NCBI GenBank assembly: GCA_040390725.1
Contig: JAZJXT010000004.1
Span: forward strand, 30,026 to 94,025
Direction of reading: 5' to 3'
Origin: Patescibacteria group bacterium
GTDB lineage: Bacteria > Patescibacteriota > Minisyncoccia > Phycocordibacterales > UBA9973
DNA length: 64,000 nucleotides
The notes beneath the pieces are model-generated. The model made no database searches, was not told the DNA's origin, and worked only from the letters and a program-made list of their open reading frames with translations. Position 1 is the stretch's first letter. Every line of letters starts with the position of its first letter. Made by a program: the position numbers and the translations under genes. This document shows, in pieces, positions 20,783-57,460 of this stretch.

Positions 20783-23700
20783 ATGATATCGCGTATATAT
20801 GTGGCGACAAAAGTTAAAGACAGCCGGGCTTTGGGCTTTATGAAGTCTTTTAAAGGGCTGGGTTTGTCTGGAAAAGTCGCAAATGTTGCAGTGCTTGATT
20901 CCTATTTGATTGATTCTGATATATTTAAAGAAAACTCCAAAGAAATGATAATGAGGTCAGCCGGAGCTTTGACTAATCCAATTTTAGAGAAATTTTCTAT
21001 AAATGAATTGCCGGCGGATAAGGATTTTAATTATGTTATTGAAATAGGATTCTTGCCGGGGGTGACGGACAATATAGCGCATACGGCAAAAGAAACTATT
21101 TCAGATTTATTAAAACTTAAAGATGATGCAAGGCTGGAAATTTATACTTCAAAAGTTTTTTTAATTTCCGGAAGCATAAATGTAAAAGATATAGAAAAAA
21201 TCGCTTCTTCACTCTACAATCCTTTGATTGAGCGCGCATATATTGCAAGTGCAAGAGAAATAAAACAAATAGGCGGTTTGCCTTTAGAGACTCCGCAAGT
21301 TATTTTGCCGGATCAAAAATCAGTGATAAATGTATCACTCCGAGCGCCTGACGAAGAGCTTGTTAAAATAGGTAGTGAAGGCATAATGGATGAAAATGGA
21401 AAAAGGCGCGGTCCACTTTCGCTCGATTTAGTTTCAATGAAAGTCATTCAGGCACATTTTGAAAAAATGGGACGCGACCCTCGAGATATTGAAATAGAAT
21501 CTTTGGCGCAGACATGGTCTGAGCATTGCAAGCATACTATTTTTGCAAATCCGATAGATGATATCAAAGACGGTTTATATAAAACTTATATAAAAGGCGC
21601 GACGAAATTAATCCGTGAACAAAAAGGAAATAAAGATTTTTGTGTTTCTGTTTTTTCCGATAATGCCGGCGGAATTATTTTTGATGATAATTATTTAGTA
21701 ACGCATAAAGTAGAAACTCACAATAGCCCTTCGGCACTTGATCCATTCGGTGGATCTATCACAGGCATTGTTGGAGTCAATCGCGATACAATTGGTTTCG
21801 GCTTAGGCGCGAAGCCTGTCGCGAATGCTTATGGATTTTGTTTTGGAGAACCCTCGGATACAAGGGCATTATTTTTGGATAAAGAAAAAAAACAAAAAAT
21901 GTTTTCTCCGAAAAGAATAATGGAAGGTGTTATAAAAGGCATAAATGCTGGGGGGAATTGTTCTGGCATTCCGACAGTTTCAGGTTTTGTAAAATACGAT
22001 GATAGGTTTCGGGGTAAGCCATTGGTCTTTGCCGGCACAGTCGGACTTATTCCAAGAGAAATAAATGGTAAACCTTCTCACGAGAAAAAAGCGCAAGCGG
22101 GGGATTATATCGTAGTTGTCGGTGGGCGAGTCGGAGCTGACGGTATACACGGTGCTACATTTTCATCAGTTGCGATGGATTCCAAATCTCCGGCTGCTGC
22201 AGTACAAATAGGCGACCCTATAACTCAGAAAAAATTAAGTGATGCAATAGTAAAAGAAGCTCGTGATATGGATTTGTATAACAGCATTACCGACAATGGT
22301 GCCGGAGGAATTTCTTGTTCCATCGCAGAGATGGCTCGAGAATGTAATGGCGCAAAAGTTGAATTAGAAAAAGTGCCGTTGAAATATCCAGGGTTACGAC
22401 CTTGGGAAATTTGGATTTCAGAATCACAAGAGAGGATGACTTTGGCTATCCCTCCAAAAAAGTGGGAAGTTTTTAGAAAATTAATGGAGAGCAGAGGAGT
22501 GGAGGCGACGGTAGTCGGTGAATTTACTGATTCCGGGAATTGCGTTGTGAATTATAATGGTAAAAATATTATGGAAATGACTCTTGATTTTCTTCATAAT
22601 GGATTGCCAAAAAGGCAATTAGAAACTACACCAGTTATACATACTTTTCCTGAACCAAAAATAACAAAAGAGTCTCGTGCAAAAATTTTAGAAGAATTAT
22701 TATCAAATAATAATATAGGCGGATCATCTTTTATTGCTGAACAATATGATCACGAAGTGCAAGCTTCCTCTGTCCTGAAGCCTCTCTCGGGTGCGGGTAA
22801 AATAAATACTGATGCGCAAGTTTTCGCTCCTGTGCTCAGCTCAAAAAAGGGCGTAGTAGTTTCTACTGGTGTGTATCCCTCTTATGGGGACATCAGTACT
22901 TACCATATGGCATCTTGCGCATTAGATACTGCTGTCAGGAATATTATTTGTGCCGGAGGTACGCTAAGCCATTTAGCAATACTTGATAACTTTTGCTGGT
23001 GTTCATCAGATGATAAAGTTCGCCTGGCAGAACTCGTGGATGCAGTGAAGGCTTGTTATAAATACGCAGTAGGCTACAGCACTCCGTTTATTTCCGGAAA
23101 AGACAGTATGTTTAATGATTTCAAAGGTTATGATGAAAAAGGAAATCCAATAAAAATTTCTATACCACCGACATTGCTTATATCCGGCATAAGCGTCACG
23201 CAAGATATTTCAAAAACTATATCTCCTGAATTTAAAAATGCAGGAGACATTATTTATTTATTGGGTGATACATATGATGAAATGGGTGCGAGTGAATATT
23301 TTAAATTATTAGCTAAAAAAGAAGTCCACCCCGCCTTAAAAGGCACCCCTCAAGAGGGGAATTTATCAATCGGTAGTAATGTTCCGCAAGTTGATTTAGG
23401 AAAAAATCTAAAAACTTATTTAGTATTAGAAGATGCAATTAAAAAAGAATTAATAAATTCCGCAATTTCTCTAAATTCCGGTGGTTTGGCTGTGGCTTTA
23501 GCGAAAGCCTCAGTAGGCGGAATGTTGGGATGCAAAGTAAATATTAAAAATATACCCGGAAATAATTCCTCAGATGATGCGAAATTATTTTCTGAAAGCC
23601 AAGGTAGAATTTTAGTTTCCATATCACAGGAAAATGTTAAAAAATTTGAAAAGATAATTCTGGCAATACCGCGAGCAGAACTCGGTAAAGTCACTAAAAA

Positions 23701-23803
23701 CGGAAAGTTTGAAATTGTGAATAATAAAAATAAAACAATTATCAAAACAGATATAAAGAAATTAAAAAAGGCTTATCATAGTTTTTCAGAAAGTATGAAA
23801 TAA
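20783..23803 (+). CDS. purL: Phosphoribosylformylglycinamidine synthase subunit PurL with a ~200-aa N-terminal PurS-like extension
   Basis: Linker motif WSEHCKHTIFANPI and duplicated AIRS-like ATP-binding domains (DNGAGGISCSIAEMA). 1006 aa, between small PurL (~740) and large fused PurL (~1300). Confidence 0.9.
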   Translation: MISRIYVATKVKDSRALGFMKSFKGLGLSGKVANVAVLDSYLIDSDIFKENSKEMIMRSAGALTNPILEKFSINELPADKDFNYVIEIGFLPGVTDNIAHTAKETISDLLKLKDDARLEIYTSKVFLISGSINVKDIEKIASSLYNPLIERAYIASAREIKQIGGLPLETPQVILPDQKSVINVSLRAPDEELVKIGSEGIMDENGKRRGPLSLDLVSMKVIQAHFEKMGRDPRDIEIESLAQTWSEHCKHTIFANPIDDIKDGLYKTYIKGATKLIREQKGNKDFCVSVFSDNAGGIIFDDNYLVTHKVETHNSPSALDPFGGSITGIVGVNRDTIGFGLGAKPVANAYGFCFGEPSDTRALFLDKEKKQKMFSPKRIMEGVIKGINAGGNCSGIPTVSGFVKYDDRFRGKPLVFAGTVGLIPREINGKPSHEKKAQAGDYIVVVGGRVGADGIHGATFSSVAMDSKSPAAAVQIGDPITQKKLSDAIVKEARDMDLYNSITDNGAGGISCSIAEMARECNGAKVELEKVPLKYPGLRPWEIWISESQERMTLAIPPKKWEVFRKLMESRGVEATVVGEFTDSGNCVVNYNGKNIMEMTLDFLHNGLPKRQLETTPVIHTFPEPKITKESRAKILEELLSNNNIGGSSFIAEQYDHEVQASSVLKPLSGAGKINTDAQVFAPVLSSKKGVVVSTGVYPSYGDISTYHMASCALDTAVRNIICAGGTLSHLAILDNFCWCSSDDKVRLAELVDAVKACYKYAVGYSTPFISGKDSMFNDFKGYDEKGNPIKISIPPTLLISGISVTQDISKTISPEFKNAGDIIYLLGDTYDEMGASEYFKLLAKKEVHPALKGTPQEGNLSIGSNVPQVDLGKNLKTYLVLEDAIKKELINSAISLNSGGLAVALAKASVGGMLGCKVNIKNIPGNNSSDDAKLFSESQGRILVSISQENVKKFEKIILAIPRAELGKVTKNGKFEIVNNKNKTIIKTDIKKLKKAYHSFSESMK

Positions 23804-23804: not shown

Positions 23805-25457
23805 ATGGAAAATAAAAATTGCCAAAATTGCAAGAAAGATTTTACGATAAATAAAATTGAACTTACTCAATACGCAAAAATTAACTTAGTTATTCCTGAT
23901 ATTTGTGTTCCATGTCGATGGAAACATCATATGGCTTTTTGGCCGTTTGGTAAATTTAGACAAGGGAAGTCTGATCTTTCAGGGGAAAGACTCATAACAG
24001 TTCTTCCAAATAATGCTAGATATCCTATTTTTACATCAAAAGAATGGTGGAGTGATGCTTGGGATCCGGCATCCTACAGTCAGGAATATGATGAAAATCG
24101 ATCTTTTTTTGATCAACTTAAAGAATTACAAGAGAAAGTTCCTCGTCCGCATCAGCAGGGAGCTCAAAATACTGATTGTGACTGGTGCGACGATGCATGG
24201 GAATCAAAAAATTGTTACCTTTCTCGTTCGACGAAAAAAGCTGAAAATTTACTCTACGGATATCGCGCTATTGAAGTAAAAGATTCAATAGACATATCGC
24301 ATGTTTTTACTTTAGATCAATGCTATGATTGCACATACTGCTTTAGATCTTATAATTTACTTTTTTCAAAAAATTGCCGAGATTGTATGGAGAGCGCTTT
24401 TCTTTTTGATTGTCGTAATTCGTCAAATTGTTTTATGTGTTGGAACTTGCGAGGCAAATCGTATTGCATAGAAAATATGCAATACACAAAAGAAGAATAT
24501 CAAGAAAAAATGAAGTCGATTAATCTCGGTTCGTATTCCGAGCTTGAAAGATTTAAAAATCGTTATGCGGAAATCTTGAAAGAAAATGCCGTTCATAGGG
24601 AAAATTTTAATGTTAAAACATATAATTCCACCGGAACCTATATGTCTGATTGCAACAACTGCACAAATGTATTTTTTTGGGAGGATTCAGAAAATTGTAT
24701 AAATTGTTTGCGCGGACTGAAAACCAAAGACTCAATCGACATGACTGGTTGTTGGTATGTTGAAGTTTCCGGAAACAATAGTTGTTGTACTAATTCTTAC
24801 GACCTTAAATATTCTATTTGGTGTGATGGAGCTAAGTACTCAGAATATTGCGATCAATGCCTCGAGGTGGATTATTGTTTCGGTTGCATCGGCTTGCGCA
24901 AGAAAAAATATTGCATTTTAAATAAACAATATACCAAAGCAGAATACGAAGTTCTTATAGAAAAAATTATTTCTGACATGAAGGCTCGCGGTGAATACGG
25001 AAAATTTCCGCCATATTCTTTGGGCTTATGTCCATACAATTTTTCTACCGGAGCAATTTATTTTCCGGAAGTTACCAAAGAATACATAAAAGAAAGAGGA
25101 GGGTATTGGGAAGAAGATAACGGGCAACAGGCGGAGGGATTGCCCACCTCCGAGCTCCCGGATTCTATTTCTGATGTGGATTCTTCGATTACCAGACAGG
25201 CTCTCGTCTGTCCCGTAACCGGCTGGAGGTACAATATAGCCGAAGCCGAATTAGCATTTTTGAAACGAAAAAATATTGCATTACCTAGGTTGCATTTCGA
25301 TGTACGTACTAAAAAACGATTACTTACTATTAGTCAAACAAAAAGTGAACCTTATGTCTGCACCTACTGTTCGAAAAATATTATCGCTTATTATCCAAAA
25401 GATTGGGGATACAAGAAAATAGCCTGCGAAGAATGTTATAAAAAGGAAGTTTATTAA
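23805..25457 (+). CDS. Cysteine-rich protein with N- and C-terminal zinc-ribbon knuckles and internal C-x2-C repeats; paralog of 58738..60435
   Basis: N-terminal NCQNCKKDF...CVPCRW; C-terminal CTYCSK...CEECYKKEVY; two internal repeated halves each ending K(S/K)YCIxNxQYTKxEYE. Start is 2 nt after the purL stop. Confidence 0.6.
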   Translation: MENKNCQNCKKDFTINKIELTQYAKINLVIPDICVPCRWKHHMAFWPFGKFRQGKSDLSGERLITVLPNNARYPIFTSKEWWSDAWDPASYSQEYDENRSFFDQLKELQEKVPRPHQQGAQNTDCDWCDDAWESKNCYLSRSTKKAENLLYGYRAIEVKDSIDISHVFTLDQCYDCTYCFRSYNLLFSKNCRDCMESAFLFDCRNSSNCFMCWNLRGKSYCIENMQYTKEEYQEKMKSINLGSYSELERFKNRYAEILKENAVHRENFNVKTYNSTGTYMSDCNNCTNVFFWEDSENCINCLRGLKTKDSIDMTGCWYVEVSGNNSCCTNSYDLKYSIWCDGAKYSEYCDQCLEVDYCFGCIGLRKKKYCILNKQYTKAEYEVLIEKIISDMKARGEYGKFPPYSLGLCPYNFSTGAIYFPEVTKEYIKERGGYWEEDNGQQAEGLPTSELPDSISDVDSSITRQALVCPVTGWRYNIAEAELAFLKRKNIALPRLHFDVRTKKRLLTISQTKSEPYVCTYCSKNIIAYYPKDWGYKKIACEECYKKEVY

Positions 25458-25486: not shown

Positions 25487-26542
25487 ATGATTTTGAATTT
25501 GGTGAAAATTTTCTTGCCGACGGCCTTTGCCTTTTTTTTAGGTATTTTTATCACACCTTTTGCCACTCACTTTTTTTATAAATATAAAATGTGGAAGAAA
25601 TACGCTCGCACAGAAGAAGTAACAAATAAAGATTTTAAAAAAATACACAACAATGAAGTAGAATTAAAAACACCGCGAGTGGGAGGCATTATTATTTGGG
25701 TTTCAGTATTATTTACTATCTTACTTTTTTATTTAATATCGATAATTTTTCCTACACCTATATTTTCAAAAATAAATTTTCTTTCCAGGAACCAAACCCT
25801 CATTCCATTATTCACTTTACTTTTTGGCTCACTATTGGGTCTGTGGGATGACTTGATACAAATATACGGCACGGGTAGGTTTGCGCGTGATGACAAATCT
25901 TGGCGTAACTGGAAAGCTTTTTTAATCGCATTTCTTTCACTCTTGGTTGGTATTTGGTTTTTTTATAAATTAGGCATGCACTCTATACATATTCCATTTG
26001 ATGGTATTTGGGAATTAGGTATTTTAATAATTCCACTTTTTATAATTGTAGCTCTAGCTACTTTTTCCGGCGGAGTAATAGATGGCATTGACGGACTTTC
26101 CGGGGGAGTATTGGCTTCTATTTTTGGAGCTTATTCTGCTATTGCCTTTGCAAATAATCAGATAGACCTAGCGGCTTTTTCCGGAGTCATTACCGGAGGA
26201 ATCTTGGCATTTTTATGGTTCAATATTCCACCAGCTAGATTTTACATGGGGGAGACGGGCATGATGGGGCTCACTATCACCCTGGCAACATTGGCATTTA
26301 TGACTGATTCAGTTTTGGTCTTGCCTGTTATTGCTTTACCTCTCGTCATCACTTCATTGTCAGTGCTCTTGCAAATGTTTTCCAAAAAATTTAGAAATGG
26401 AAAAAAGATTTTTAAAATAGCACCGATACATCATCATTTTGAAGCTATCGGCTGGCCATCATACAAAGTGACCATGCGTTTCTGGATTTTGTCTTTAGTG
26501 TTTGCAATTATTGGAATAATCTTGGCTATTATCAGCAGATAA
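25487..26542 (+). CDS. mraY: Phospho-N-acetylmuramoyl-pentapeptide transferase
   Basis: Polytopic membrane protein with KTPRVGG (cf. KxGTPTMGG), WDDLIQIY (DDxxD) and IDGIDGLSGG motifs. Directly upstream of ftsW-murG. Confidence 0.75.
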   Translation: MILNLVKIFLPTAFAFFLGIFITPFATHFFYKYKMWKKYARTEEVTNKDFKKIHNNEVELKTPRVGGIIIWVSVLFTILLFYLISIIFPTPIFSKINFLSRNQTLIPLFTLLFGSLLGLWDDLIQIYGTGRFARDDKSWRNWKAFLIAFLSLLVGIWFFYKLGMHSIHIPFDGIWELGILIIPLFIIVALATFSGGVIDGIDGLSGGVLASIFGAYSAIAFANNQIDLAAFSGVITGGILAFLWFNIPPARFYMGETGMMGLTITLATLAFMTDSVLVLPVIALPLVITSLSVLLQMFSKKFRNGKKIFKIAPIHHHFEAIGWPSYKVTMRFWILSLVFAIIGIILAIISR

Positions 26543-26543
26543 A

Positions 26544-27650
26544 ATGGCAAAAACAAAAACAATTGATAGATTTTTCTTAATAATAATTTTGATTCTGATT
26601 TCCGTTGGTGTGGCTATGTTTATTTCTGCATCATTGGGAATCCTGGCAAAAAATGAAAAGATTTTTTATTCAGTTCTTACGAGCCAGCTAGTGCTCGGTC
26701 TAGGGTTTGGACTTGTCGGCATGTATATTGCCTTAAAAATAAACTACAAATTTTGGCAAAGATACTCTCTGCATATTTTCATAGCTTCTATTTTATTGAC
26801 AGCAGCTGTATTTATTCCTCACTTAGGCTGGAACCACGGAGGAGCGACGAGATGGATAAAGTTAGGCCCTGTTTCTTTTCAACCGGCAGAAATATTAAAA
26901 TTTGGTTTTATTATTTATTTTTCGGCATGGCTTTCTTGGACAAAAAATAAAGTAAAGGATTTTAAATTCAGCATACTACCCCTAGGCATCATGCTCGCAG
27001 TCATCGCCGCTATTTTATTTAAACAACCGGACACAAAAAGTTTTATCTTAATAGCGGTCACAGGCATATCAATGCTTTTTATTTCCGGAGTACCGATAAA
27101 ATATATCTTGGGAGTATTCTTTGGGGCAATATTTGTTCTCGGTTCTTTGGTATTTTTTACGCCATACCTCCAACAACGCGTAAAAACATTTATTGATCCA
27201 TCACAGGATGCCAGAGGGTCTTCTTATCAAATACAACAATCATTAATAGCTCTCGGTTCGGGTGGAGTATTTGGCAGGGGATATGGGCAAAGCATCCAAA
27301 AATTCAGCTACCTGCCGGAACCACAAGGGGACTCTATCTTTGCAGTTCTGGGTGAAGAATTTGGTTTTATCGGGGGATTAGTAACAATATTACTTTATTG
27401 CATTTTTGCTTTACGTGGAATGCGCATCGCCAATAATTCCCCAGACTTATTCGGTAGACTTTTAGTCTCAGGAATTGTTATACTGATTACAGCGCAGTCA
27501 TTCATGAATATAGCTTCGATCACGGGAGTTTTTCCATTGACTGGTGTGCCGCTTGTTTTCATGAGTCATGGAGGTACTTCGCTCATGATATACTTGATGG
27601 CTATAGGTATAATACTTAATATATCAAAATTTCAAAAATATAATATATGA
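26544..27650 (+). CDS. ftsW: SEDS-family peptidoglycan glycosyltransferase FtsW/RodA
   Basis: About ten TM helices, SEDS motifs (PEPQGDSIFAVLGEEFGFIGG; PLTGVPLVFMSHGGTS). Sits in the dcw context between mraY and murG. Confidence 0.8.
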   Translation: MAKTKTIDRFFLIIILILISVGVAMFISASLGILAKNEKIFYSVLTSQLVLGLGFGLVGMYIALKINYKFWQRYSLHIFIASILLTAAVFIPHLGWNHGGATRWIKLGPVSFQPAEILKFGFIIYFSAWLSWTKNKVKDFKFSILPLGIMLAVIAAILFKQPDTKSFILIAVTGISMLFISGVPIKYILGVFFGAIFVLGSLVFFTPYLQQRVKTFIDPSQDARGSSYQIQQSLIALGSGGVFGRGYGQSIQKFSYLPEPQGDSIFAVLGEEFGFIGGLVTILLYCIFALRGMRIANNSPDLFGRLLVSGIVILITAQSFMNIASITGVFPLTGVPLVFMSHGGTSLMIYLMAIGIILNISKFQKYNI

Positions 27651-28777
27651 AAATAATATTTACAGGAGGGGGTACGGGCGGACATTTTTATCCTATTATC
27701 GCCGTAGCCCAAAAAGTCAATCAAATAATAGACCAAGAAAAAATAATAGGTGCCAAGCTTTATTATTTTTCCAACAACCCTTATGACAAAGAGGCCCTAT
27801 TTGAGAATGGATTATTATATGAGGAAATCAATGCCGGCAAGATGCGCACATATTTTTCTATAAGAAACTTCTTTGATATTTTTAAAATATTTTTTGGAGT
27901 ACTAGGTGCAACATACAAAGTATTTACGATTTATCCTGATGTTATTTTTGGCAAAGGAGGATTTGCTTCATTCCCGACTATCGTCGCCGCTAGGATTTTA
28001 AACATACCTGTGATCATTCATGAATCTGACTCTGCTCCTGGACGAGTAAATAAATGGGCGGGAAGTTTTGCAAAAAAAATTGCCATTTCATTTAATGAAG
28101 CCGCAGAGTATTTTCCTAGTAAAAAAATAGCTTGGACTGGCCAACCCATCAGGTCAGAAATAGAACAACCGGCCGAAAGACAAAAGGCTTTGGAATATTT
28201 TAAATTAGAATCCAACATACCTATTATTCTAGTTTTAGGCGGTTCACAAGGTGCTGAACTTATAAATAATACTATCCTAGACGCGTTACCTAGGCTTATA
28301 AAAAATTATCAAATTATTCACCAGACAGGGGTACGGAATTTTAAAATGGTGACTGAGCGTGCACAAGTCGTCATAACAAGCGAAGAAGATAAAGCTAAAT
28401 ATATGCCTATTTCTTTTTTAAATCCCTTGCAAATGAAAATGGCTGCCGGTGCTGCGACCATCATAATCTCTCGTGCAGGCTCAACTTTATTTGAAATTGC
28501 ATCCTGGGGAGTGCCTTCAATTTTAATTCCATTCACCACATCAAATGCTGATCATGCAAGAAAAAATGCATTTAATTATGCGCGTGCCGGAGCATGCAGT
28601 GTAGTGGAAGAAATGAATATGACTGCAAATATTTTAAGTTCGGAAATTGAAAGGATAACAGAAGACAAATCAACCTTGGAAAGAATGGCAAAATCTGCCA
28701 AAGCATTCAGCAGACCTGGAGCTGCACTAAAAATCGCTCGGGAGCTTGTAGATATGGCTTTATCTCACGAGGAATAA
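27647..28777 (+). CDS. murG: UDP-N-acetylglucosamine--N-acetylmuramyl-(pentapeptide) pyrophosphoryl-undecaprenol N-acetylglucosamine transferase
   Basis: N-terminal GGGTGGHFYPIIAVA G-loop, GT-B fold. Confidence 0.85.
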   Translation: MKIIFTGGGTGGHFYPIIAVAQKVNQIIDQEKIIGAKLYYFSNNPYDKEALFENGLLYEEINAGKMRTYFSIRNFFDIFKIFFGVLGATYKVFTIYPDVIFGKGGFASFPTIVAARILNIPVIIHESDSAPGRVNKWAGSFAKKIAISFNEAAEYFPSKKIAWTGQPIRSEIEQPAERQKALEYFKLESNIPIILVLGGSQGAELINNTILDALPRLIKNYQIIHQTGVRNFKMVTERAQVVITSEEDKAKYMPISFLNPLQMKMAAGAATIIISRAGSTLFEIASWGVPSILIPFTTSNADHARKNAFNYARAGACSVVEEMNMTANILSSEIERITEDKSTLERMAKSAKAFSRPGAALKIARELVDMALSHEE

Positions 28778-31374: not shown

Positions 31375-31581
31375 TTGGACGTTTTGAGCCTTGCGCTGAT
31401 TTTATACTTTATGGTAAAATTACTTGTAATGTTAAAAGAAAAAAAATTAGAAAATAAAGAGGGGGGATTTTTACAATTAATTCTTTTTATAGTAGCGGTG
31501 ATTCTCATATTATGGTATTTTCATTTAACTGTGCATGACATTTATAATTGGTTCATAACGATGTTCAATAATGTTTGGTAA
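31375..31581 (+). CDS. Small hydrophobic protein (68 aa)
   Basis: Two predicted TM helices and short. Could be a genuine small membrane protein or noise. Confidence 0.3.
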   Translation: MDVLSLALILYFMVKLLVMLKEKKLENKEGGFLQLILFIVAVILILWYFHLTVHDIYNWFITMFNNVW

Positions 31582-31960
31582 AAATACAAAAAAAGAAGCG
31601 GGGAGTTTGAGTATTTTAGGAATAGTATCCTTGCTGATTATTTTAATTGTCATTTTAAGTTACTTTAATATAAACCTTAAATCTGTCGTTGAAGACACTA
31701 CGAACACTTCAAGCGTAAAAAGTGTCGTACAAAGTCCTCAAACAGCCGATAATGTAAACTACGTGACCAGCACCATTCAAAATTTCTGGAATGATTTATG
31801 GGATAATTATCTAAGCGTACCTTTTACAAATTTTTATAATAATTTCTGGTTACCTTATATCTGGAATCCTTTTTGGGACAACATGAAAAGAATACAGAAC
31901 GGCCAACCGACTGATATTCAGAATGCAGCTCCCACGGTATACTTTGGCAATAATCCATAA
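31571..31960 (+). CDS. Hypothetical membrane-anchored protein with Trp-rich aromatic repeats
   Basis: N-terminal TM helix, then repeated FWNDLWDNYL / FWLPYIWNPFWDNM aromatic motifs. Confidence 0.4.
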   Translation: MFGKNTKKEAGSLSILGIVSLLIILIVILSYFNINLKSVVEDTTNTSSVKSVVQSPQTADNVNYVTSTIQNFWNDLWDNYLSVPFTNFYNNFWLPYIWNPFWDNMKRIQNGQPTDIQNAAPTVYFGNNP

Positions 31961-32052
31961 TAACAATATACGTACCCTACCGAAAACATATATTGTGCGA
32001 CACTGTATTATCTTAATTCCCCAATAAAATAGAGCTTTTAAAAAAGTAAATA

Positions 32053-47088: not shown

Positions 47089-48990
47089 TTATTTTTGCAA
47101 TAGCAATGCTTTTTTACCTATATCTCGCCTATACTGCATACCTTCAAATGATATTTTTTTGATAGCTTCATATGCCGTGTTCAAAGCTTCTTGTAATGTA
47201 TCACCAATAGCAGATACTCCCAGCACTCGCCCACCGTTGGTGACTAAATTATTATTTTCCATTTTTGTACCGGCGTGAAAAACAACAACGTTTTTATTTT
47301 CTTCCGCTTCTTTAACTTCAAAAATAATTTTCCCTTTTTCATAATCCCCCGGATATCCGGCTGAAGCTATTGCAATATTACAGGCAAATAAATCTTTCCA
47401 TTTTATTTCCATTTGATTTAATTTTTTATCAACACAAGCATTTATTATTTCCAATAAATCACTATCAAGCAAACGCATATAGCTTTGTGTTTCAGGATCG
47501 CCAAAACGAGAATTAAATTCAATTATTTTCGGTCCGTCTTCTGTGATAATAATTCCAGGGAAAATTATTCCTTCAAATAATGCACCTTCATCACGCATGC
47601 CCTTTAATACCGGCGCGATAATTTCTTTTTCAATTCTATTTTTCATTTCTTCATTTATAAATGGCAATGGAGCAATTGTTCCCATGCCTCCTGTATTTAA
47701 CCCTGTATCATTTTCACCAATTCTTTTGTGGTCTTGCGACAATGGAAACATCGAATAAGTTTCACCGTCTGATAATGCATGCACAGAAATTTCAATTCCC
47801 GTAAGGAATTCTTCTATGACTATTTCCCTGCCTGATTCACCAAAAACTTTTTTAATAAAAATATCTTGCAAGGCTTTTTCAGCTTCTTCTTTATTTAAAC
47901 AAATCAAAACACCCTTACCAAAAGCTAGTCCATCCACTTTTATGACTACTGGAAATTTTTGCGTATTTAAATACTCCAGTGCCTTATCGTAGTCATCAAA
48001 ACTTTCCCATCGTGCTGTAGGTAAATTATGCCTCTTCATAAAATCTTTTGCATAAACTTTTGACCATTCAAGTTTTGCCGCCATTTTTGTCGGCCCCCAA
48101 ATACGTAAATTCTCTTTCTTAAATTCATCCACTACACCAAGCGCCAAAGGGTCATCAGGCACAGCTAAAGTCAAATCTATTTTTTCTTTTTTTACAAAAT
48201 CAATAAGCCCAGCTATGTCTGTGGCTTTAATATCAATATTTACACCTATTTCAGCCGTACCGGCATTCCCCGGAGCAAAATAAATCTCACCCGCCAAAGG
48301 CGACTGCGCTATTTTCCATCCGATAGCGTGTTCCCTGCCGCCAGACCCTATTATTAAAATTTTCTGCTTACTGATTTCGCATAATTTTTCTAAAACTTCC
48401 ACGTAAAGCTTATTTTCTTTTCTTTTTAATCTTGAGTATAAAGAAATAACATTATCGTTTTCTTCAGCTTTCTCATATACTCTACCAAGAACTGGCCCAA
48501 AGTCGAAGTTTAAAGTCAAAAAATGTATTGAAGAGCCGGCATAAGTTGATCTTTTATCCAAAACATTTTGTATCGCCTTTTCGGTCAGCATTCCTTTATT
48601 CCAAAGTGACTCTGTGCCGTCAGGATTTTTAAATACTCCATCCTCAGCATCTGGAATAATTCCCGGATGTAAATTTATAATTTTATTCGGATACCCAGTA
48701 ATAACTTCATCTAAAATTATTTTTTTCCAACCGCATAAACAAATAAAATCAGGATTTAATTTTTGTAAAAGCGGTAAGAGATTTTCTTTCTCCGCGCAAA
48801 TTTCAATTTTTAAATTGTGCCTTTTTGCATGCTCTAACCCCAAAGCTTTTTCGGTATCGGAAACTACCGCGCAAATCTCCGCATTTATTTTACCTTGTTC
48901 TATGCCTTCTATTATGGCCTGCAAATTTGTGCCTGTACCGGTGTCAGAAATCAAAACAGCTAATTTTATTTTATTCTTTTGGGACATCAT
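47089..48990 (-). CDS. purND: Bifunctional phosphoribosylglycinamide formyltransferase / phosphoribosylamine--glycine ligase (PurN-PurD fusion)
   Basis: N-terminal ~200 aa is PurN-like (KLAVLISDTGTGTNLQAII ... LHPG). The remainder is a PurD ATP-grasp (KILIIGSGGREHAIGWKIAQSP ... GAGTAEIG). One continuous 633-aa frame. Confidence 0.85.
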   Translation of the reverse strand: MMSQKNKIKLAVLISDTGTGTNLQAIIEGIEQGKINAEICAVVSDTEKALGLEHAKRHNLKIEICAEKENLLPLLQKLNPDFICLCGWKKIILDEVITGYPNKIINLHPGIIPDAEDGVFKNPDGTESLWNKGMLTEKAIQNVLDKRSTYAGSSIHFLTLNFDFGPVLGRVYEKAEENDNVISLYSRLKRKENKLYVEVLEKLCEISKQKILIIGSGGREHAIGWKIAQSPLAGEIYFAPGNAGTAEIGVNIDIKATDIAGLIDFVKKEKIDLTLAVPDDPLALGVVDEFKKENLRIWGPTKMAAKLEWSKVYAKDFMKRHNLPTARWESFDDYDKALEYLNTQKFPVVIKVDGLAFGKGVLICLNKEEAEKALQDIFIKKVFGESGREIVIEEFLTGIEISVHALSDGETYSMFPLSQDHKRIGENDTGLNTGGMGTIAPLPFINEEMKNRIEKEIIAPVLKGMRDEGALFEGIIFPGIIITEDGPKIIEFNSRFGDPETQSYMRLLDSDLLEIINACVDKKLNQMEIKWKDLFACNIAIASAGYPGDYEKGKIIFEVKEAEENKNVVVFHAGTKMENNNLVTNGGRVLGVSAIGDTLQEALNTAYEAIKKISFEGMQYRRDIGKKALLLQK

Positions 48991-50378: not shown

Positions 50379-51188
50379 TTATTTTCTAAAATAATCAACT
50401 GCGTTTTTAAATAAAATAATACCGTCACCCATTTCACTTTTTTGGGAGCCGAGCTCCCCCTTGGGAGCTCGGCTCCCAAATTTATTCTTTTGCCACAAGG
50501 GACTATGATACGCAAACATTGCGCGTTCCGGATGAGGCATCATTCCCAATACCCTGCCATTATACGCTAAAACTCCGGCTATTGCATAATCCGAGCCGTT
50601 TGGATTTACTTCGGTATTCTGGAATTTACAAATATCACCTTTCGTATAAGTAAAAGCAATTTGTTTATTTTTCTTCAAAATTTTATATTCTTTTGCATCA
50701 GCTATATATCTGCCTTCGCCGTGCGCTATAGGCAAGGAAATTTTCTTAATATTTTTAAGCCAAGGACTAGTACTATTTTCTGTTTTTAGATCCACCCAAT
50801 AATCAATATACAAAGCATTCTTGTTGTGTGTGAGAGCTCCCGGTATAATTCCTAAATTCGTCATTATTTGAAAACCATTACAAATACCTATCGCTAAAGT
50901 ATTACGAGATAAAAATTCCTCTAATTCTTTTGCCAAGTGATTTTTAAATTTATTCGCATAAGCTTTTCCACTGCCCGTATCATCACCATAAGAAAATCCT
51001 CCAGGGAAAGCTAAAATTTGGTATTCCAAAAGCATTTTTGGCTTCGCGATTAGGTCATTTATATGCACAATGTCAGCCTTACCACCTACTTTTTCAAAAG
51101 CATACTTTGTTTCCTCTTCGCAGTTTAAACCATACCCGGAAAGCACTATAATTCTTGGCTTTTTAATTTTTTTTTGGGCTTTTTTCAT
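50379..51188 (-). CDS. purQ: Phosphoribosylformylglycinamidine synthase glutaminase subunit
   Basis: Class I glutamine amidotransferase with catalytic GICNGFQ and HPE triad motif. 269 aa. Confidence 0.85.
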   Translation of the reverse strand: MKKAQKKIKKPRIIVLSGYGLNCEEETKYAFEKVGGKADIVHINDLIAKPKMLLEYQILAFPGGFSYGDDTGSGKAYANKFKNHLAKELEEFLSRNTLAIGICNGFQIMTNLGIIPGALTHNKNALYIDYWVDLKTENSTSPWLKNIKKISLPIAHGEGRYIADAKEYKILKKNKQIAFTYTKGDICKFQNTEVNPNGSDYAIAGVLAYNGRVLGMMPHPERAMFAYHSPLWQKNKFGSRAPKGELGSQKSEMGDGIILFKNAVDYFRK

Positions 51189-51225: not shown

Positions 51226-51354
51226 CTAATACACCTCCTGCTGATAACATTTTTCACAATACACTATTTCCGGTCTTTCCGGAGCATAACTTGTTTCAAA
51301 TTCTACATTGCATCTTGCCCCGCCTTGGCGTGGGTTTTTTGTTTCGTAATTCAT
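51226..51354 (-). CDS. 42-aa zinc-ribbon-like mini ORF, an in-frame internal-deletion derivative of the Cys-rich paralog family (possibly a gene remnant)
   Basis: Not in the ORF track (<60 aa). Translation is MNYETKNPRQGGARCNVEFETSYAPERPEIVYCEKCYQQEVY. The N-terminus matches ...NKTPRQGGINC of 58738..60435 (15 nt identical, cccgccttggcgtgg at 51318-51332 vs 60388-60402). The C-terminus matches its ...EITTSYSPEDQKKYVLYCEQCYQQEMY end. Immediately upstream of purQ, same strand. Confidence 0.45.
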   Translation of the reverse strand: MNYETKNPRQGGARCNVEFETSYAPERPEIVYCEKCYQQEVY

Positions 51355-52087: not shown

Positions 52088-54268
52088 TTATTCTAAAAGA
52101 TTCTTAAGAACATCCTCGGGTACTTCGCGAACTTTTGGTGCTGGCGGAGGTGTCGGCGTGGGCGTTGGTCCTGATATTGGTCTTGGTGTCGGCTCAGGCA
52201 CTGATTCAGTTTTCTCGGAAATCAAATCTTTTAATTTATTCATTTCATCAATACTTGCTGAGCGGTCGCCATGTAAAATGACAGGTGGTTGAGAAATTTT
52301 TAAATCACTCAAAGACATAGGTGGAGGTGTCGGCTTTTCTACTATTGAAATAGCCTCGGGTGAAATAGAATTCGATTCAGAAATTTTATTTTCTGATAAA
52401 GTTTTATTTAAAATATCTCGAAGCGCTAAATTTTCTTTTCTAGGCTCTTTTTTAAATATAACAGGTTTTGCAAATGGAGTCTTTATAGAAAAATTTGGCA
52501 AAAGTTTAGAAATATTTTTTAAAGGTGAAGATACTGACGGCTTTATGGTTGGTCTTACCGGTGGTCTAATATTTTTATCAAAAGTTTTTTTAATTTCTAA
52601 AAATGGACTAGGCTTCTTTGGGGCTTGAGGGGCTTTAACCGGTGAAGCATTAACCGATACAGACCTCTCGGTATTTGTAGGAGCGCCTTGATTGCCACCG
52701 CCACCTTGACTCTTGTTTTCAAATTCAATACCTAAATCCGCCAATGGTCTGTAAAATTTTGTTTCATCTTGCTTGATTTGATTCATGGATCCCGAAAGAG
52801 GCTTCAATTCACCTGACTTCATTTTTGCTATACAATCCTTGCAATACACGGGCCTGCCTGGCTGCGGCATAAATGGTACAAAAGTTTCTTTTTTACAAAT
52901 AGAACAAACTGCGGGGAATTTTTCCATACTGCCAGAATCATTGTCGCCACCTACCATCATGCCACTCCAATTATTTATTTCCCTTTCTACTTCTTCTCTG
53001 GATCTGCAATACAAAGCGCGAGAAGACCTGATAACTTCTTCTTCTATTTCTTTAATGCCTGACTTCACCAAGGGTGGCAAAGTCTTTGCAGAAAATGGCC
53101 GGCTCGTAATACCGCCTATCATTAATTTTAAATAAATTCTATAGTTCGGTAAGTTCACGATATCTTGCGGAATAAATTCCGGCTCAAATTCTTTTTCCAA
53201 AAATTCCGCATCATCGGCGCCGACACGAAATACAATCATGGTACCCACGTTACCGAAAACAGAGTCGCGCACATTTGTACTTTCTTTAGTGACAAGCTGA
53301 GCAGTGTATTGGTGAGCAACTGTTAAATTAAGACGATATTTTCGAGCCTCGGAAAGAATAGATGCGAAAGAATCTGTAACGAAATTTTGGAATTCGTCCA
53401 CGTAAAGATAAAAATCTTTACGCTCTTCTTCAGGAATACGAACGCGCTCCATCGCCGCCAGCTGAATCTTTGTAATAATCATACCTCCGAGTAATGCAGA
53501 GTTATCTTCACCGATACGCCCCTTGGAAACATTCACTAGAAAAATCTTTCCTTCATTCATAACATCAAAAACATTTATTGTGCTTTTTGATTGGCCTACA
53601 ACATTTCGAATTATAGAAGTTGAAAGAAATTGTCCGACTTTATTTTGAATCGGAGCAATAGCTTCATTTCTAAATTTATCCTGCCAAGCTTCATATTCAT
53701 GAATCCAAAAAGCCTTGATGACGGGATCTTTTAAATTACTAATTATTTTTTGACGATAATCTTTATCCACTAGCATTCTGGGTATTCCCAAAAGAGTGGT
53801 ATTTGGGGTGTCGAGCAATGCTAAAATAGCGTTGTTCAAAATATATTCCATTCTCGCAGACCAAGCATTCGCCCAAATTTTTGTAAATATTCCCATGAGA
53901 CCGGAAGCCACCAAATGTTTATATTTTGGATCAAGTAATTCCAAAACATTAAAACCAATATGATAATCAACATCTGCAGGATTAAAATAAACAACGTCTT
54001 TCATGCGGTGCGGAGGAATAGCCGAAAGAATACTTTCTACGAGTTCTCCGTGAGGGTCAACCACACAAACACCATCACCATTTATGACATTTTGAATAAC
54101 CATATTGAACATCAAGACAGATTTACCGGTACCGGATTTACCGAGCAGATACATATGCTGGCGCCTGTCTTTTCGCTTGATACCGAAAAGAGTTTTTTTG
54201 TCGCGATAGGTCGTCTGACCTATATATGTCATATCCTTATTGGCTGGTAAATCTTTAAATTCCATCAA
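52088..54268 (-). CDS. P-loop NTPase of the HerA/FtsK/TraD-VirD4 superfamily with C-terminal zinc ribbon and long Pro/Ser-rich low-complexity tail
   Basis: Walker A HMYLLGKSGTGKS, Walker B YLYVDEFQNF, zinc ribbon CSICKK...CKDC, then ~250 aa of PxP-rich tail. No N-terminal TM. Exact family not resolvable by eye. Confidence 0.45.
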   Translation of the reverse strand: MMEFKDLPANKDMTYIGQTTYRDKKTLFGIKRKDRRQHMYLLGKSGTGKSVLMFNMVIQNVINGDGVCVVDPHGELVESILSAIPPHRMKDVVYFNPADVDYHIGFNVLELLDPKYKHLVASGLMGIFTKIWANAWSARMEYILNNAILALLDTPNTTLLGIPRMLVDKDYRQKIISNLKDPVIKAFWIHEYEAWQDKFRNEAIAPIQNKVGQFLSTSIIRNVVGQSKSTINVFDVMNEGKIFLVNVSKGRIGEDNSALLGGMIITKIQLAAMERVRIPEEERKDFYLYVDEFQNFVTDSFASILSEARKYRLNLTVAHQYTAQLVTKESTNVRDSVFGNVGTMIVFRVGADDAEFLEKEFEPEFIPQDIVNLPNYRIYLKLMIGGITSRPFSAKTLPPLVKSGIKEIEEEVIRSSRALYCRSREEVEREINNWSGMMVGGDNDSGSMEKFPAVCSICKKETFVPFMPQPGRPVYCKDCIAKMKSGELKPLSGSMNQIKQDETKFYRPLADLGIEFENKSQGGGGNQGAPTNTERSVSVNASPVKAPQAPKKPSPFLEIKKTFDKNIRPPVRPTIKPSVSSPLKNISKLLPNFSIKTPFAKPVIFKKEPRKENLALRDILNKTLSENKISESNSISPEAISIVEKPTPPPMSLSDLKISQPPVILHGDRSASIDEMNKLKDLISEKTESVPEPTPRPISGPTPTPTPPPAPKVREVPEDVLKNLLE

Positions 54269-54288: not shown

Positions 54289-56151
54289 TTAGTTTTGTCC
54301 ACCTTCAGGTGGAGTTTCCGGGTTTGGATTCTCTTGTGCCGGCTGTTCAGCAGAAGCCTTTTGCACAGCTTCGCCAATTTTAGACATTTCACTGGAAAGC
54401 TCTTCGGTGGCTTTTTTAACCGCTTCCATGTCACTGCCATCTTTTAATCCGCGAAGCATTGTGATTTTTGCATTCACGCCGTCTTTGAGTTCAGCAGGAA
54501 TTTTCGCTTCATTATCCTTGATTGCTTTTTCAGCTGTGAAGATAACCATATCAGCAGTATTTTTCACATCGGCATTTTCTTTTTTCTTTTTATCTTCATC
54601 AGCGTGAATTTCCGCGTCTTGTTGCATTTTTTTAATGTCTTCTTCTTTGAGTCCGGAGCTGGCTTCGATTCTGATAGTTTGTGTTTTACCTGAAGCTTTA
54701 TCCATAGCTTTCACATTCAAGATTCCGTTTGCATCCACATCAAAAGTCACTTCAATCTGAGGCATACCTCGAGGCGCTGGCGGAACTCCGTCTAAAATAA
54801 ATCGTCCCAGACTTTTATTGTCAGATGCCATAGGGCGTTCACCTTGCACTATGTGTATTTCCACACTTGTTTGATTGTCAGCAGCGGTAGAAAATGTTTG
54901 CGATTTTGATGAAGGAATAGTTGTATTTCTTTCCACTAATTTTGTAGCGACACCACCCAATGTTTCAATACCTAAAGATAATGGAATAACATCAAGAAGC
55001 AAGACATCACGCACATCACCTTGCAACACTCCAGCTTGCACCGCAGCGCCGAGAGCGACAACTTCATCGGGATTAATAGAAAGATTTGGAACTTTACAAA
55101 AAACTTTTTTCACTTCTTCCACGATTTTCGGCATTCTCGTTTGTCCTCCGACCATTATTATTTCATTCATTTCTTCCATTTTAAAACCGGAAGCAGTCAT
55201 CGCGCGTTTTGTTATTTCTATCGAACGAGCGATATATTCATCAGCGATTGATTCGAGTTGCGCGCGAGTCATTTTCAAGAGCAAGTGTTGCGGACCCTCA
55301 GCAGTAGAAGTAATAAACGGAATGTTTATTTCAGTTTCGATAGCTGTGGAAAGTTCGATTTTTGCTTTTTCAGCAGCTTCATCGAGACGTTGCAATGCTA
55401 GCTTGTCATTTCTTACATCTACACCGGAAGTCTTTTTATATTCTTCCGCAATCCAAGCGATAATCTTGTGGTCGATGTCGCGACCTCCTAGGTGACTGTC
55501 CCCATCTGTAGATTTTACTTCGATAACATCATCACCAATTTCTAAAACGGAAACGTCGAAAGTTCCTCCACCGAAGTCATACACAACTACTTTTTCATTT
55601 TTCTTTTTATTAAAACCATAAGCGAGCGCTGCAGCTGTCGGCTCATTGATAATTCTTTTTACGTCGAGGCCTGCTATCGCTCCTGCGTCTTTTGTAGCTT
55701 TTCTTTGCGCATCGTTGAAATACGCCGGCACAGTGATGATGGCTTCAGTTATTTTCTCGCCGATTTTTGCTTCGACATCACTTTTTATTTTTCCTAAAAT
55801 CATCGCGGAAATTTCTTCCGGGCGCATCCATTTGTCGCCTATCATTACTTCCACTCCGCCATTTGCTGATTTCTGAATTTTAAAAGAAGCATTTTTTAAA
55901 TCTTTCTGCACTTCCGGATCTTCGAAATTGTGACCCATAAAACGCTTGATGCCATACACAGTATTTTCCGGATTCGTCACCGCTTGTCTTTTTGCAAGCA
56001 AGCCTACCAGCCTGTCGCCATTTTTTGCAACAGAAACTACCGAAGGAGTCGTCCTCGCTCCCTCCGCATTCTCAATAATCTTCGGCTGTCCGCTTTCGAT
56101 TATCGCCACCGCACTATTTGTTGTACCCAAATCTATTCCTATTATTTTCAT
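54289..56151 (-). CDS. dnaK: Chaperone protein DnaK (Hsp70)
   Basis: [21 protein letters not shown] and full-length Hsp70 architecture with an acidic C-terminal tail. Confidence 0.95.
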
Positions 56152-56163: not shown

Positions 56164-56598
56164 TTAATTACTAATAATTTGAAAACCTAATTCTTTAACT
56201 TTTGAATCAAATAATTCTGCCCGCTTTGCAACATCAATTTTTTTAGTATCTTCAGTATAAGAAATAATTTCTTTATTTGTATACAAATCTACAACAAAAT
56301 ATGAGTTAATTTCCAGAGTGGAAAATCCACCCAAATACAAGCAAGCCTTAAGGCCTTCATCGTATCTATACTGGGGCTTACTAGCTATAAACATAGACTC
56401 GAAACTTTTTGTATTATTTTTTTCTGATTCCGAAGCATATTTTTTAATACCTAACTCTTGACATTTAACAATATTTTGACTTAAAGAAACTTCTCTATCC
56501 TTTTTAGGTAAATAAGAAACAAAATAATAACCGACAGCTAATGCTATTATTATTAAAGAAATACAGACTAACAAACTAGCGAAATTTATTTTTTTCAT
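56164..56598 (-). CDS. Hypothetical membrane-anchored/lipoprotein-like protein (144 aa)
   Basis: N-terminal signal-like helix (ASLLVCISLIIIALA). Stop lies 12 nt upstream of the dnaK start. Confidence 0.4.
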   Translation of the reverse strand: MKKINFASLLVCISLIIIALAVGYYFVSYLPKKDREVSLSQNIVKCQELGIKKYASESEKNNTKSFESMFIASKPQYRYDEGLKACLYLGGFSTLEINSYFVVDLYTNKEIISYTEDTKKIDVAKRAELFDSKVKELGFQIISN

Positions 56599-56610
56599 AT
56601 ATTTATATTT

Positions 56611-56988
56611 TTATAAATCTTTTAATAACTTATCGATTACTTCTACTGATGTATTTTTTGATACTGCCATTGCGGTATTAAAAAGTATTCTTAGAGATTC
56701 CTTGTATGAAGAATCTATTACTGTATTTACTTGCAAAATTACTTCATTTGGATTAGTTGCCTGAATGGTAAAAACATAATTATTATTATTTTGTCCAAGT
56801 GATGGTGGTATAGATCTGTTAATAATCATTGCCATTTGTTGTATCTGTAATGTAATAGTGAAAGACCTGTCGTCCTCTTGTTTTATCCAACGCACAAGAT
56901 TAGAATTTGCTGATTTCCATGGAATTTTTTCTTCCTTGGATTTTTCAATAAGTTTTTTAATTTGTTCTAAAATTTTTGTATTATCCAT
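56611..56988 (-). CDS. Hypothetical protein (125 aa)
   Basis: Soluble. Middle gene of the tightly packed three-gene set upstream of dnaK. Confidence 0.4.
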   Translation of the reverse strand: MDNTKILEQIKKLIEKSKEEKIPWKSANSNLVRWIKQEDDRSFTITLQIQQMAMIINRSIPPSLGQNNNNYVFTIQATNPNEVILQVNTVIDSSYKESLRILFNTAMAVSKNTSVEVIDKLLKDL

Positions 56989-57001
56989 ATATTTATATAT
57001 T

Positions 57002-57454
57002 TTACTTATTAATAGATTCCTTTTTTAAGCGACCTCTTAACTCTTGTAAGCTACCAATCAATTCCCTAAAAGGAGAAGCGAGTGTAAAACATATCTGAGA
57101 ACTTGTCGTTTCTACATCATCAAGTGTGTTAAATGCAACACCCATGTCCGCTAAATCCTTTTCAAGGATATCAATAATCTCTTTATAATTTATATTTGTT
57201 TTAAGTTGTCCAATTATAGTTTTCACTCTTCCATTTATAGTGGCAATTTGATTATTAGCATCCATCCAAGCAACATCTTTTTTTAATGTACAACTATTAC
57301 AAATATCTGAAATTTCCTCTTCCGTTGATCTTAGTTGTACTTCTTGTTTAGCTTCTCGGGCTGCTAACTTAGATCTATAGGCTTGCCAAAAAGCACCGGC
57401 AGAAAGCAAAATTCCAATATATACTAATATTCTATCAAATGTGAAATAATCCAT
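57002..57454 (-). CDS. Hypothetical protein with N-terminal TM helix (150 aa)
   Basis: First gene of the set. Preceded by a near-consensus promoter overlapped by a perfect palindrome. Confidence 0.4.
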   Translation of the reverse strand: MDYFTFDRILVYIGILLSAGAFWQAYRSKLAAREAKQEVQLRSTEEEISDICNSCTLKKDVAWMDANNQIATINGRVKTIIGQLKTNINYKEIIDILEKDLADMGVAFNTLDDVETTSSQICFTLASPFRELIGSLQELRGRLKKESINK

Positions 57455-57460
57455 GACTTA

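Follow-up and report, generated by a model that had tools for sequence, protein, structure and literature searches.

A cysteine-rich protein family of Patescibacteria encoded in arrays near VirD4-like ATPase genes and, in Paceibacteria, Hsp70 genes

The genome of a Patescibacteria group bacterium of the lineage UBA9973 (GenBank assembly GCA_040390725.1) raises the question of what two long cysteine-rich proteins, one encoded directly after a purine gene and the other directly after a chaperone gene, contribute to the cell. Both genes lie in a stretch of 64,000 nucleotides (nt) of contig JAZJXT010000004.1 (positions 30,026 to 94,025, forward strand), which is referred to as the window. Copy 1 (23805..25457, + strand) encodes 550 amino acids (aa) between purL and mraY. 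Copy 2 (58738..60435, - strand) encodes 565 aa if translation begins at the ATG at 60435; the NCBI call (P0121) begins at the ATG at 60429 and gives 563 aa. The family comprising the two proteins is named X throughout. X is described here as a large Patescibacteria family whose genes form arrays with genes for VirD4-like ATPases and, in Paceibacteria, for the Hsp70 system. The family and this linkage are new, whereas its terminal fingers belong to known but functionally uncharacterised families.

Shared architecture and range of the family

BLASTP has aligned copy 1 and copy 2 end to end, with 32% identity over 552 columns (E 2e-94). By this alignment they are divergent paralogues with similarity far above chance, and the original prediction of such a pair, sharing an unusual architecture of terminal fingers and duplicated modules, was borne out. 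All of the motifs quoted in that prediction are present. The sequence NCQNCKKDF is common to both copies, and the box (K/S)YCIxNxQY(T/S)KxEY closes each half-repeat, being weaker in module 1 of copy 2. The ends read CEECYKKEVY in copy 1 and CEQCYQQEMY in copy 2. The tryptophan motif, EWWSDAWDP in copy 1 and EWWGDDWEP in copy 2, had been given imprecisely and is corrected to W-W-(S/G)-D-x-W-(D/E)-P. Copy 1 contains 35 Cys (6.4%) and copy 2 contains 34, with 13 CxxC pairs and few His in each.

Residue conservation and Cys periodicity were taken from an alignment of 152 diverse X members, motif counts from 796 members, and finger matches from a Pfam scan of 60 aligned members. Copy 1 opens with a treble-clef zinc finger (23820..23915, + strand) formed by C6, C9, C34 and C37, which are 88–97% conserved, and the linker W-W-x-D-x-W-D-P follows. 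Two Cys-ladder modules come next on the same strand, at 24150..24524 (aa 116–240) and 24600..24974 (aa 266–390), with a capping helix NKQY(S/T)KEEY after each. The first is built of 12-residue coils and carries the capping box YCIENMQYTKEEY, and the second ends KYCILNKQYTKAEYE. The modules and the middle region are acidic. A second zf_Tbcl-like unit (25200..25334, + strand; aa 466–510) is degenerate in copy 1, which retains only C469 of its four Cys, and copy 2 keeps CESC...CFNC at this place in the pairwise alignment. In copy 1 this region is basic (net charge +5, isoelectric point 9.7) and contains an invariant Arg. The protein closes with a CxxC-x(18)-CxxC finger (25359..25457, + strand; C519, C522, C541 and C544), whose Cys are 97–100% conserved, followed by a six-residue tail and the stop codon. 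Exactly six residues separate the last Cys from the C-terminus in 750 of the 796 members. Invariant positions of the alignment hold Cys, aromatic residues, Pro, Gly, Asp, Asn or Arg, and His is at none of them.

The paired CxxC pattern of zf_Tbcl and zf_Tbcl_2 (PF13451, PF23477; TIGR04272) is found in the N-terminal unit of X and in both of its C-terminal units. In relatives, the Pfam scan has placed zf_Tbcl fingers at about aa 7–45 and 467–509 and a zf_Tbcl_2 finger at about aa 517–554; PF13451 matched 22/60 members (E<=0.01) and PF23477 18/60. The relatives P0170 (29.1 bits) and P0145 (28.7 bits) passed the PF23477 cut-off of 27 bits. Copy 2 gave weak matches at aa 530–563, with 19.8 bits to PF23477 and 17.3 bits to TIGR04272 (cut-off 36), and copy 1 gave none to either model, though C519-x2-C522-x18-C541-x2-C544 is present. 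PF13451 (cut-off 24 bits) matches neither window copy, and reached 34.1 bits on P0205 (aa 467–509) and 27.5 bits on P0170 (aa 7–44). Fingers of this kind, about 40 aa long, make up less than 25% of X; nothing matches the 420-aa core, and copy 1 matches neither the zf_Tbcl nor the zf_Tbcl_2 model. A literature search for the function of the two finger families found no paper.

The original prediction of two internal half-repeats was confirmed when profiles of module 1 (aa 116–240) and module 2 (aa 266–390) were compared (hhalign probability 99.95%, E 6.5e-38), and by this measure the modules are a true internal duplication. Each is about 125 aa long, and every third residue of its coils is Cys or Ser. 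Cys is limited to every third residue, with autocorrelation of 0.69 at lag 3 and 0.61 at lag 12 that none of 2000 shuffles equalled. One phase holds all 12 module 1 Cys of copy 1, and another holds 12 of the 13 in its module 2. Each 12-residue coil has at most four interior Cys, and CxxCxxCxxC occurs in 612/796 members. Individual module Cys are 50–90% conserved, being freely replaced by Ser or Leu (S182, S206 and L149 in copy 1). AlphaFold2 models have a mean predicted local distance difference test score (pLDDT) of 83 and a predicted template modelling score (pTM) of 0.81 for copy 1, and 83.4 and 0.85 for copy 2. Both are confident as a whole and show strands at 12-residue spacing, and the modules are the weakest region of both (pLDDT 60–75). 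The modules are probably narrow beta-solenoids resembling Tenebrio antifreeze protein, a reading that rests on the sequence periodicity and these models of moderate confidence.

The coil of Tenebrio antifreeze protein has 12 residues (TCTxSxxCxxAx), and its pattern of interior residues matches the X ladder. X has the same 12-residue Cys period as the Tenebrio repeat (PF02420), but the likeness is one of geometry and composition and not of demonstrated homology. PF02420 gave no match on the window copies (E<=1) and a precomputed match on 3/120 relatives. X also differs from the antifreeze protein in having no Thr-Cys-Thr ice-binding face (TCT in 36/796), no signal peptide, and flanking cytoplasmic fingers.

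The original prediction had offered a metal/redox or nucleic-acid-binding scaffold as an example of what the family might be. The density of Cys bears on whether X may be a metal or redox protein, either a storage or assembly scaffold for Zn or Fe-S or an Hsp33-like redox-switch holdase that passes clients to DnaK. The content of 6% Cys, the CxxCxxCxxC runs and the interior Cys of each coil would suit such a role, as would the neighbouring genes for DnaK, DnaJ and GrpE and the divalent-ion tolerance gene cutA1, which adjoins X or the ATPase gene in 9–12 loci (e.g. L084:8769-9044, L116:633-938). Hsp70 systems serve Cys scaffolds, as HscA/HscB do with IscU, and Hsp33 cooperates with DnaK. Like X, the DnaJ CxxCxGxG domain, Hsp33 and the IscU-HscA/HscB system are rich in Cys or Zn and are encoded with, or act with, DnaK, DnaJ or GrpE. 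Unlike these families, X has no J domain, none of them was matched in the Pfam and NCBIfam scans, and DnaJ is encoded separately. The incomplete conservation of the module Cys, with Ser and Leu in their place, argues against a metal or redox centre. CxxCxxCxxxCP is found in 0/796 members and CxxCxGxG in 13/796, and no Isc or Suf genes recur nearby. A metal or redox role is thus improbable. The first of these counts, together with the module Cys conservation, led to the rejection of a ferredoxin-like X, and motif counts have also ruled out a radical-SAM motif.

Word-indexed searches returned 5,471 matches for copy 1 and 4,927 for copy 2, nearly all unnamed or "hypothetical" proteins of about 550 aa from metagenome-assembled genomes of Patescibacteria. 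An exhaustive profile search found 5,181 clusters (50% identity) at E<=1e-3 and 2,126 at E<=1e-30. The best 150 profile matches are mostly full-length, and nearly all members have 540–600 aa. Relatives are encoded in at least 553 stretches of species-representative genomes. Judged from record titles, the family occurs in Nomurabacteria, Paceibacteria, Harrisonbacteria, Liptonbacteria, Gribaldobacteria, Peribacteria, Peregrinibacteria, Abawacabacteria and Gracilibacteria. Saccharimonadia are not counted in this range because the title "uncultured Candidatus Saccharibacteria" is an unreliable placeholder. As far as the matched sequences extend, X appears restricted to Patescibacteria, in line with the original prediction of a lineage-specific, multi-copy family.

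That prediction could assign copy 1 to no characterised family, and this held for the core, which has no match in Pfam, NCBIfam, PADLOC, PDB sequences, PDB folds or viral folds. The PDB sequence search, with a single sequence and with a 60-sequence profile, returned only LIM-finger noise at E of about 1. Fold searches gave weak structural echoes of ribosomal protein S26e and HNH-type fingers, and a PHROGs scan gave a weak match of module 1 to phrog_15341 (E 5.6e-5). A phage origin was rejected, since a tblastn search of 50,697 phage records found nothing and IMG/VR gave one partial match. No account of X came up in literature searches on the finger families and on Patescibacteria or Parcubacteria families that are Cys-rich or paralogous. 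In addition, no catalytic signature or signal peptide was seen, transmembrane (TM) segments are essentially absent, and a hydrophobic N-terminus occurs in 5/796 members. We infer from these sequence features that X is a cytoplasmic, non-enzymatic binding scaffold.

Arrays, fixed positions and the purine operon

To describe gene order, 168 loci similar to copy 1 or copy 2 were fetched, open reading frames (ORFs) were called, and genes were labelled by phmmer with the window's own proteins as queries. The counts below refer to 78 species-representative loci and 80 metagenome loci; L087 and L088 were separate look-ups. The labels come from single-sequence searches that may miss divergent ATPases or regulators, and the ORF caller ignores genetic code 25, which some of the genomes may use.

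At least two X members were found in 60 of the 78 species-representative loci, and up to 10–11 lie within 21 kb (L040, L045). Locus L060 carries nine X genes in 21.6 kb of a complete 1.3-Mb chromosome, a share of over 1% of that genome, and at least 10–12 copies over two loci are seen in others. The genes of an array abut or overlap. The median best identity is 43% within a locus and 59% to another genome, and 91% of array members have their nearest relative in another genome. A recent amplification or arms-race expansion was rejected on this last count, and by these comparisons the paralogues are ancient. Members share their slot with the nearest neighbour in another genome in 73% of cases after grpE, 71% in the purine slot and 53% after the long ATPase gene, against about 5% expected by chance. 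Distinct orthogroups, as the sequence comparisons delimit them, hold fixed slots after grpE, in purL-X-purQ and in X-mraY-ftsW-murG. The order X(n)-mraY-ftsW-murG occurs in at least seven loci, including L047, L074, L106, L111, L124 and L146, and in the window mraY-ftsW-murG (25487..28777, + strand) begins 29 nt downstream of copy 1. The nearest relatives of copy 1 (63–77% identity) follow a short VirD4-like ATPase gene or ruvX, and those with 58–60% identity follow grpE; copy 1 thus belongs to an "after short ATPase" orthogroup. The nearest relatives of copy 2 (64–71%) lie between purL and purQ or in the last position of a grpE array.

In the window, purL (20783..23803, + strand), which encodes the FGAM synthase subunit without the glutaminase domain, stands directly upstream of copy 1. 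A spacer of 1 nt separates the end of the purL stop codon (23803) from the first base of copy 1 (23805). A strong terminator was found at 20697–20722, upstream of purL, and none that is convincing from purL through murG, so a purL-copy1-mraY-ftsW-murG transcript is plausible. Co-transcription with purL, which the original prediction had called almost certain, is accordingly kept as plausible. Apart from this terminator, promoter and terminator scans of the window gave nothing informative. Scans for tRNAs and Rfam families yielded just two tRNAs, which lie far from the X loci.

The spacer would suit a functional tie of copy 1 to FGAM synthase (PurL/PurQ), in which copy 1 might, for instance, be a subunit for assembly or regulation. 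The order purL-X(1-3)-purQ occurs in L087, L088 and 12/80 metagenome loci, and in a Peregrinibacteria genome (L051) purF and purN/D flank an X member. In L087 and L088 the orthologous PurL precedes a copy 2-type X. By orthology, the conserved purine slot belongs to the copy 2-type orthogroup and not to that of copy 1, whose orthologues follow an ATPase gene, grpE or ruvX. In none of the 78 species-representative loci does purL adjoin X, and most X genes lie far from purine genes. Adjacency to purL as a trait of the copy 1 orthogroup was rejected on these grounds. Moreover, the gene in the window's own purine slot has decayed to 42 aa while the ORFs of purL, purQ, purF and purN-purD are intact. 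A functional tie of copy 1 to FGAM synthase is therefore highly improbable. The adjacency to purL and purQ behind the link that the original prediction drew is conserved for the slot and not for the orthogroup of copy 1. Absence of conserved purL/purQ adjacency in related genomes had been named there as evidence against linkage, and this objection fails because the purL-X-purQ slot is strongly conserved. The purine genes are, however, just one of four contexts that recur around X. As a separate observation, three tandem X members lie between purL and purQ in L095 and L096.

The decayed gene lies at 51226..51354 (- strand), 37 nt upstream of purQ (50379..51188, - strand; PF13507, E 5e-70), which is followed by purF and purN-purD. 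Its 42-aa product MNYETKNPRQGGARCNVEFETSYAPERPEIVYCEKCYQQEVY is 53% identical to copy 2 aa 534–565 (tblastn). It consists of a head with the signature PRQGG joined to the last half finger, with three of the four finger Cys kept and a weak TIGR04272 match. PRQGG occurs in the relic and in copy 2 and in none of the five copy 2 orthologues inspected. By sequence and position the relic is a deletion remnant of the purL-X-purQ slot gene and a third X member in the window. Its place before purQ, together with the conserved slot, indicates that an ancestral purL-X-purQ unit existed and was later broken.

The window reads purL-copy1-mraY on the + strand and, on the - strand, rpsI-grpE-copy2-(paaX-like)-four small ORFs-dnaK-ATPase(long)-(rsmE-like, opposite strand)-relic-purQ-purF-purN/D. 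The cumulative GC skew has its maximum at about 31500..32050, where genes switch from the + to the - strand; the maximum may mark a terminus of replication, or just the place where transcription converges. The X copies sit on opposite arms and strands relative to this maximum. An inversion by recombination between the inverted paralogues would be a reasonable explanation of how purL may have been split from purQ.

Three further features of the purine genes were observed. A perfect 40-bp GC-rich palindrome (50441..50480; 18-bp stems with 12 GC pairs) lies inside purQ; it is unique in the window of this AT-rich genome and may be a hairpin element that was inserted in frame. The purN and purD genes are fused in one ORF of 633 aa (47089..48990, - strand). 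PurL is the form of about 1000 aa without glutaminase domain, with PurQ encoded separately.

Neighbouring ATPase and Hsp70 genes

The most widespread partners of X among its neighbours are VirD4-like ATPases, with the Hsp70 genes added in Paceibacteria. The window carries one of the long form (52088..54268, - strand; 726 aa), similar to VirD4, TraD and TrwB. It has Pfam and NCBIfam matches, TrwB as PDB match, no TM segment, and a CxxC-x17-CxxC finger at aa 449–484 with a clear match to PF23477/TIGR04272. A Pro-rich tail of about 240 aa precedes its C-terminal tip, REVPEDVLKNLLE. A tip of the form EVPEDVLRKILE follows the Pro-rich tail in 22 of 28 distinct long ATPases, and in sequence it looks like a tethered docking motif. 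An ATPase gene was labelled in 32/78 and 18/80 loci and stands directly beside X in 25/78 and 14/80. Two classes were seen, a short one of about 495 aa without finger and a long one of about 722 aa with a CxxC-x17-CxxC finger in 27/32. No TM-like segment was found in the 62 partner ATPases. The ATPase domain also matches phrog_5156 (E 7e-65), with relatives in Bacillus phages (phage G, SPO1-like) that are 22–28% identical and are annotated as DNA translocase or VirD4-like.

A 2025 survey of Patescibacteria (Microb Genom, PMC12102498) has counted 5,713 VirD4-like type IV coupling proteins (T4CPs) in 2,918 genomes, about two per genome, of which only 148 lie near virB4. On those counts, a random 20-kb stretch of a genome of about 0.8 Mb with about two T4CP genes would hold one only about 5% of the time. 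The X partners likewise match VirD4/TraD/TrwB models and lie away from genes of the type IV secretion system (T4SS). That survey leaves the function of the orphan T4CPs open, and term searches of it found no mention of X. It reports that the T4CP is dispensable and the T4SS essential for epibiotic growth, and states that exaptation "cannot be ruled out". The X partners are distinguished by being TM-less, by occurring in short and long finger-bearing forms, and by being interleaved with X arrays and Hsp70 genes. A common finger type, the tethered docking tip and constant adjacency suggest that X and the ATPases cooperate physically, and on balance we lean slightly towards regarding them as functional partners.

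Such a partnership could take the form of secretion, in which X would be T4SS cargo (effectors or surface proteins) handed over by the VirD4-like ATPases, kept unfolded by Hsp70 and locked by disulfides outside the cell. Bartonella encodes tandem arrays of Bep effectors next to virD4. The X loci resemble these virD4-bep arrays in that a coupling-protein gene stands beside tandem diverged paralogues with conserved terminal modules. A basic conserved C-terminal region and a rigid C-terminus might serve as a C-terminal signal, and the i/i+6 Cys spacing is like that of the disulfide-bonded 12-residue coil of Tenebrio antifreeze protein (PDB 1EZG). The absence of known substrates or relaxases for Patescibacteria T4SS would also leave room for such cargo (PMC12102498). 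However, the N-terminal TM domain of canonical T4CPs is found in 0/62 of the ATPases, and no T4SS component is among the 30 most recurrent neighbour families. Unlike the Bartonella arrays, the X loci have an ATPase without membrane anchor, no adjacent VirB genes, and ancient, slot-conserved paralogues in core operons. These are 55–80% identical between genera, unlike fast-evolving effectors, and three conserved zinc fingers favour folding in the cytoplasm. The scarcity of T4CPs near virB4 and their dispensability point the same way. Export of X as T4SS cargo is thus unlikely.

The kinship of the ATPases to DNA pumps raises a further alternative, in which the basic treble-clef fingers of X would bind DNA or RNA and an FtsK/HerA-superfamily ATPase would pump it, in uptake or salvage, segregation or RNA handling. 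The ATPases are TrwB/TraD/CedD-like, with the distant Bacillus phage relatives already named, and the basic second finger with its invariant Arg, the S26e and HNH-type echoes and the purine operon link are compatible with this. Against it, no nucleic-acid-binding family matches X, the modules and middle region are acidic, and the need for 5–11 paralogues per array is hard to explain. In addition, the genes interleaved with the arrays include three of the Hsp70 system, whereas replication or repair genes do not recur beside X. We regard a nucleic-acid-binding partner of a translocase as distinctly unlikely.

The Hsp70 genes form the second group of neighbours. In the window, grpE (60407..61000, - strand) lies immediately upstream of copy 2 and overlaps its start, and dnaK (54289..56151, - strand) is followed 20 nt later by the long ATPase gene. 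A gene for a PaaX-like winged helix-turn-helix (wHTH) regulator (58144..58737, + strand; PF20803, E 2.7e-19) is divergent from the array and is by synteny a conserved neighbour between the X array and dnaK. The order grpE-X was found in 18/78 and 7/80 loci. A recurrent order is rpoA-rplQ-rplM-rpsI-grpE-X(n)-paaX-like(-)-dnaK-ATPase(long)-X(n), and the full order in Paceibacteria is grpE-X(n)-paaX-like-dnaK-ATPase(long)-X(n)-ATPase(short)-dnaJ-X(n). The dnaJ gene directly follows the short ATPase gene in seven loci. Pfam has confirmed ATPase(long)-X-X-X-X-ATPase(short)-DnaJ-GIY-YIG-X-X in L170. In Peribacteria-type arrays the wHTH neighbour is of the TrmB family, divergent and heading the array (L036, L044, L045, L058, L060). 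The remaining recurrent neighbours are ordinary core genes.

The idea that X replaces DnaJ was rejected, as X lacks a J domain and its clusters encode a normal DnaJ as well. X has no match to Pfam DnaJ or DnaJ_CXXCXGXG, and a J-domain search matched only the separate DnaJ genes. The GIY-YIG gene of L170 (9707-9973) encodes 88 aa and separates dnaJ from the X gene that follows. In the window, four small ORFs (56164..58112, - strand; 144, 125, 150 and 135 aa) without Pfam match separate the PaaX-like gene from dnaK, and they were not identified in other labelled grpE-dnaK loci.

A possible cytoplasmic role and its significance

The arrays, slots and neighbours together allow a tentative proposal for what X does. 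X would work physically with the ATPases and, in Paceibacteria, also with Hsp70, its paralogues acting as client-specific adaptors of an ATPase/Hsp70 protein-handling machine or as its obligate clients. Ancient orthogroups would be hard-wired into the operons that they serve, as in purL-X-purQ, in X-mraY-ftsW-murG and after grpE. That X proteins are adaptors or obligate clients of an exapted machine of this kind is a possibility that we hold with reserve, at somewhat less than even chances.

A broader version is more speculative, and we consider it rather doubtful as a whole. In it, X arrays, the two soluble classes of VirD4-like ATPase and the wHTH regulator would constitute an unrecognised cytoplasmic machine specific to Patescibacteria, integrated into the Hsp70 operon in Paceibacteria. 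A mini beta-solenoid with its Cys ladder, possibly metal-cored, would recognise clients such as FGAM synthase subunits and cell-wall enzymes. The exapted ATPases, derived from conjugation, would remodel, assemble or translocate them.

Several points weigh against these proposals. Physical interaction of X with the ATPases or with DnaK is entirely inferred, and no homology linking X to any activity was found. The four recurrent contexts are absent from about 40–45% of loci within the DNA fetched. Peribacteria-type arrays have the ATPase and no Hsp70 genes, and their ATPases have no finger and end EEFExPLI. The Hsp70 linkage, seen only in Paceibacteria-type loci, may go back to one or two ancient insertions kept by descent, and for that reason amounts to few independent observations. 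Individual module Cys are conserved to only 50–90%, which would fit a packing role.

Whatever its partners, X is best described as a lineage-specific system and not as a purine-pathway accessory, and its members are currently annotated as "hypothetical protein". The strict pattern of Cys at every third residue predicts an unusual intracellular solenoid. Patescibacteria have genomes of about 1 Mb with little spare coding capacity, yet they carry many X copies. Because the family is large and ancient, holds fixed positions in core operons and has a core without detectable relative, a core lineage-specific function is argued for. The linkage of X offers a candidate exapted role, and a testable set of partners, for thousands of orphan VirD4-like ATPases. 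If true, the reading of X and these ATPases as a cytoplasmic machine would explain the purpose of thousands of orphan coupling proteins.

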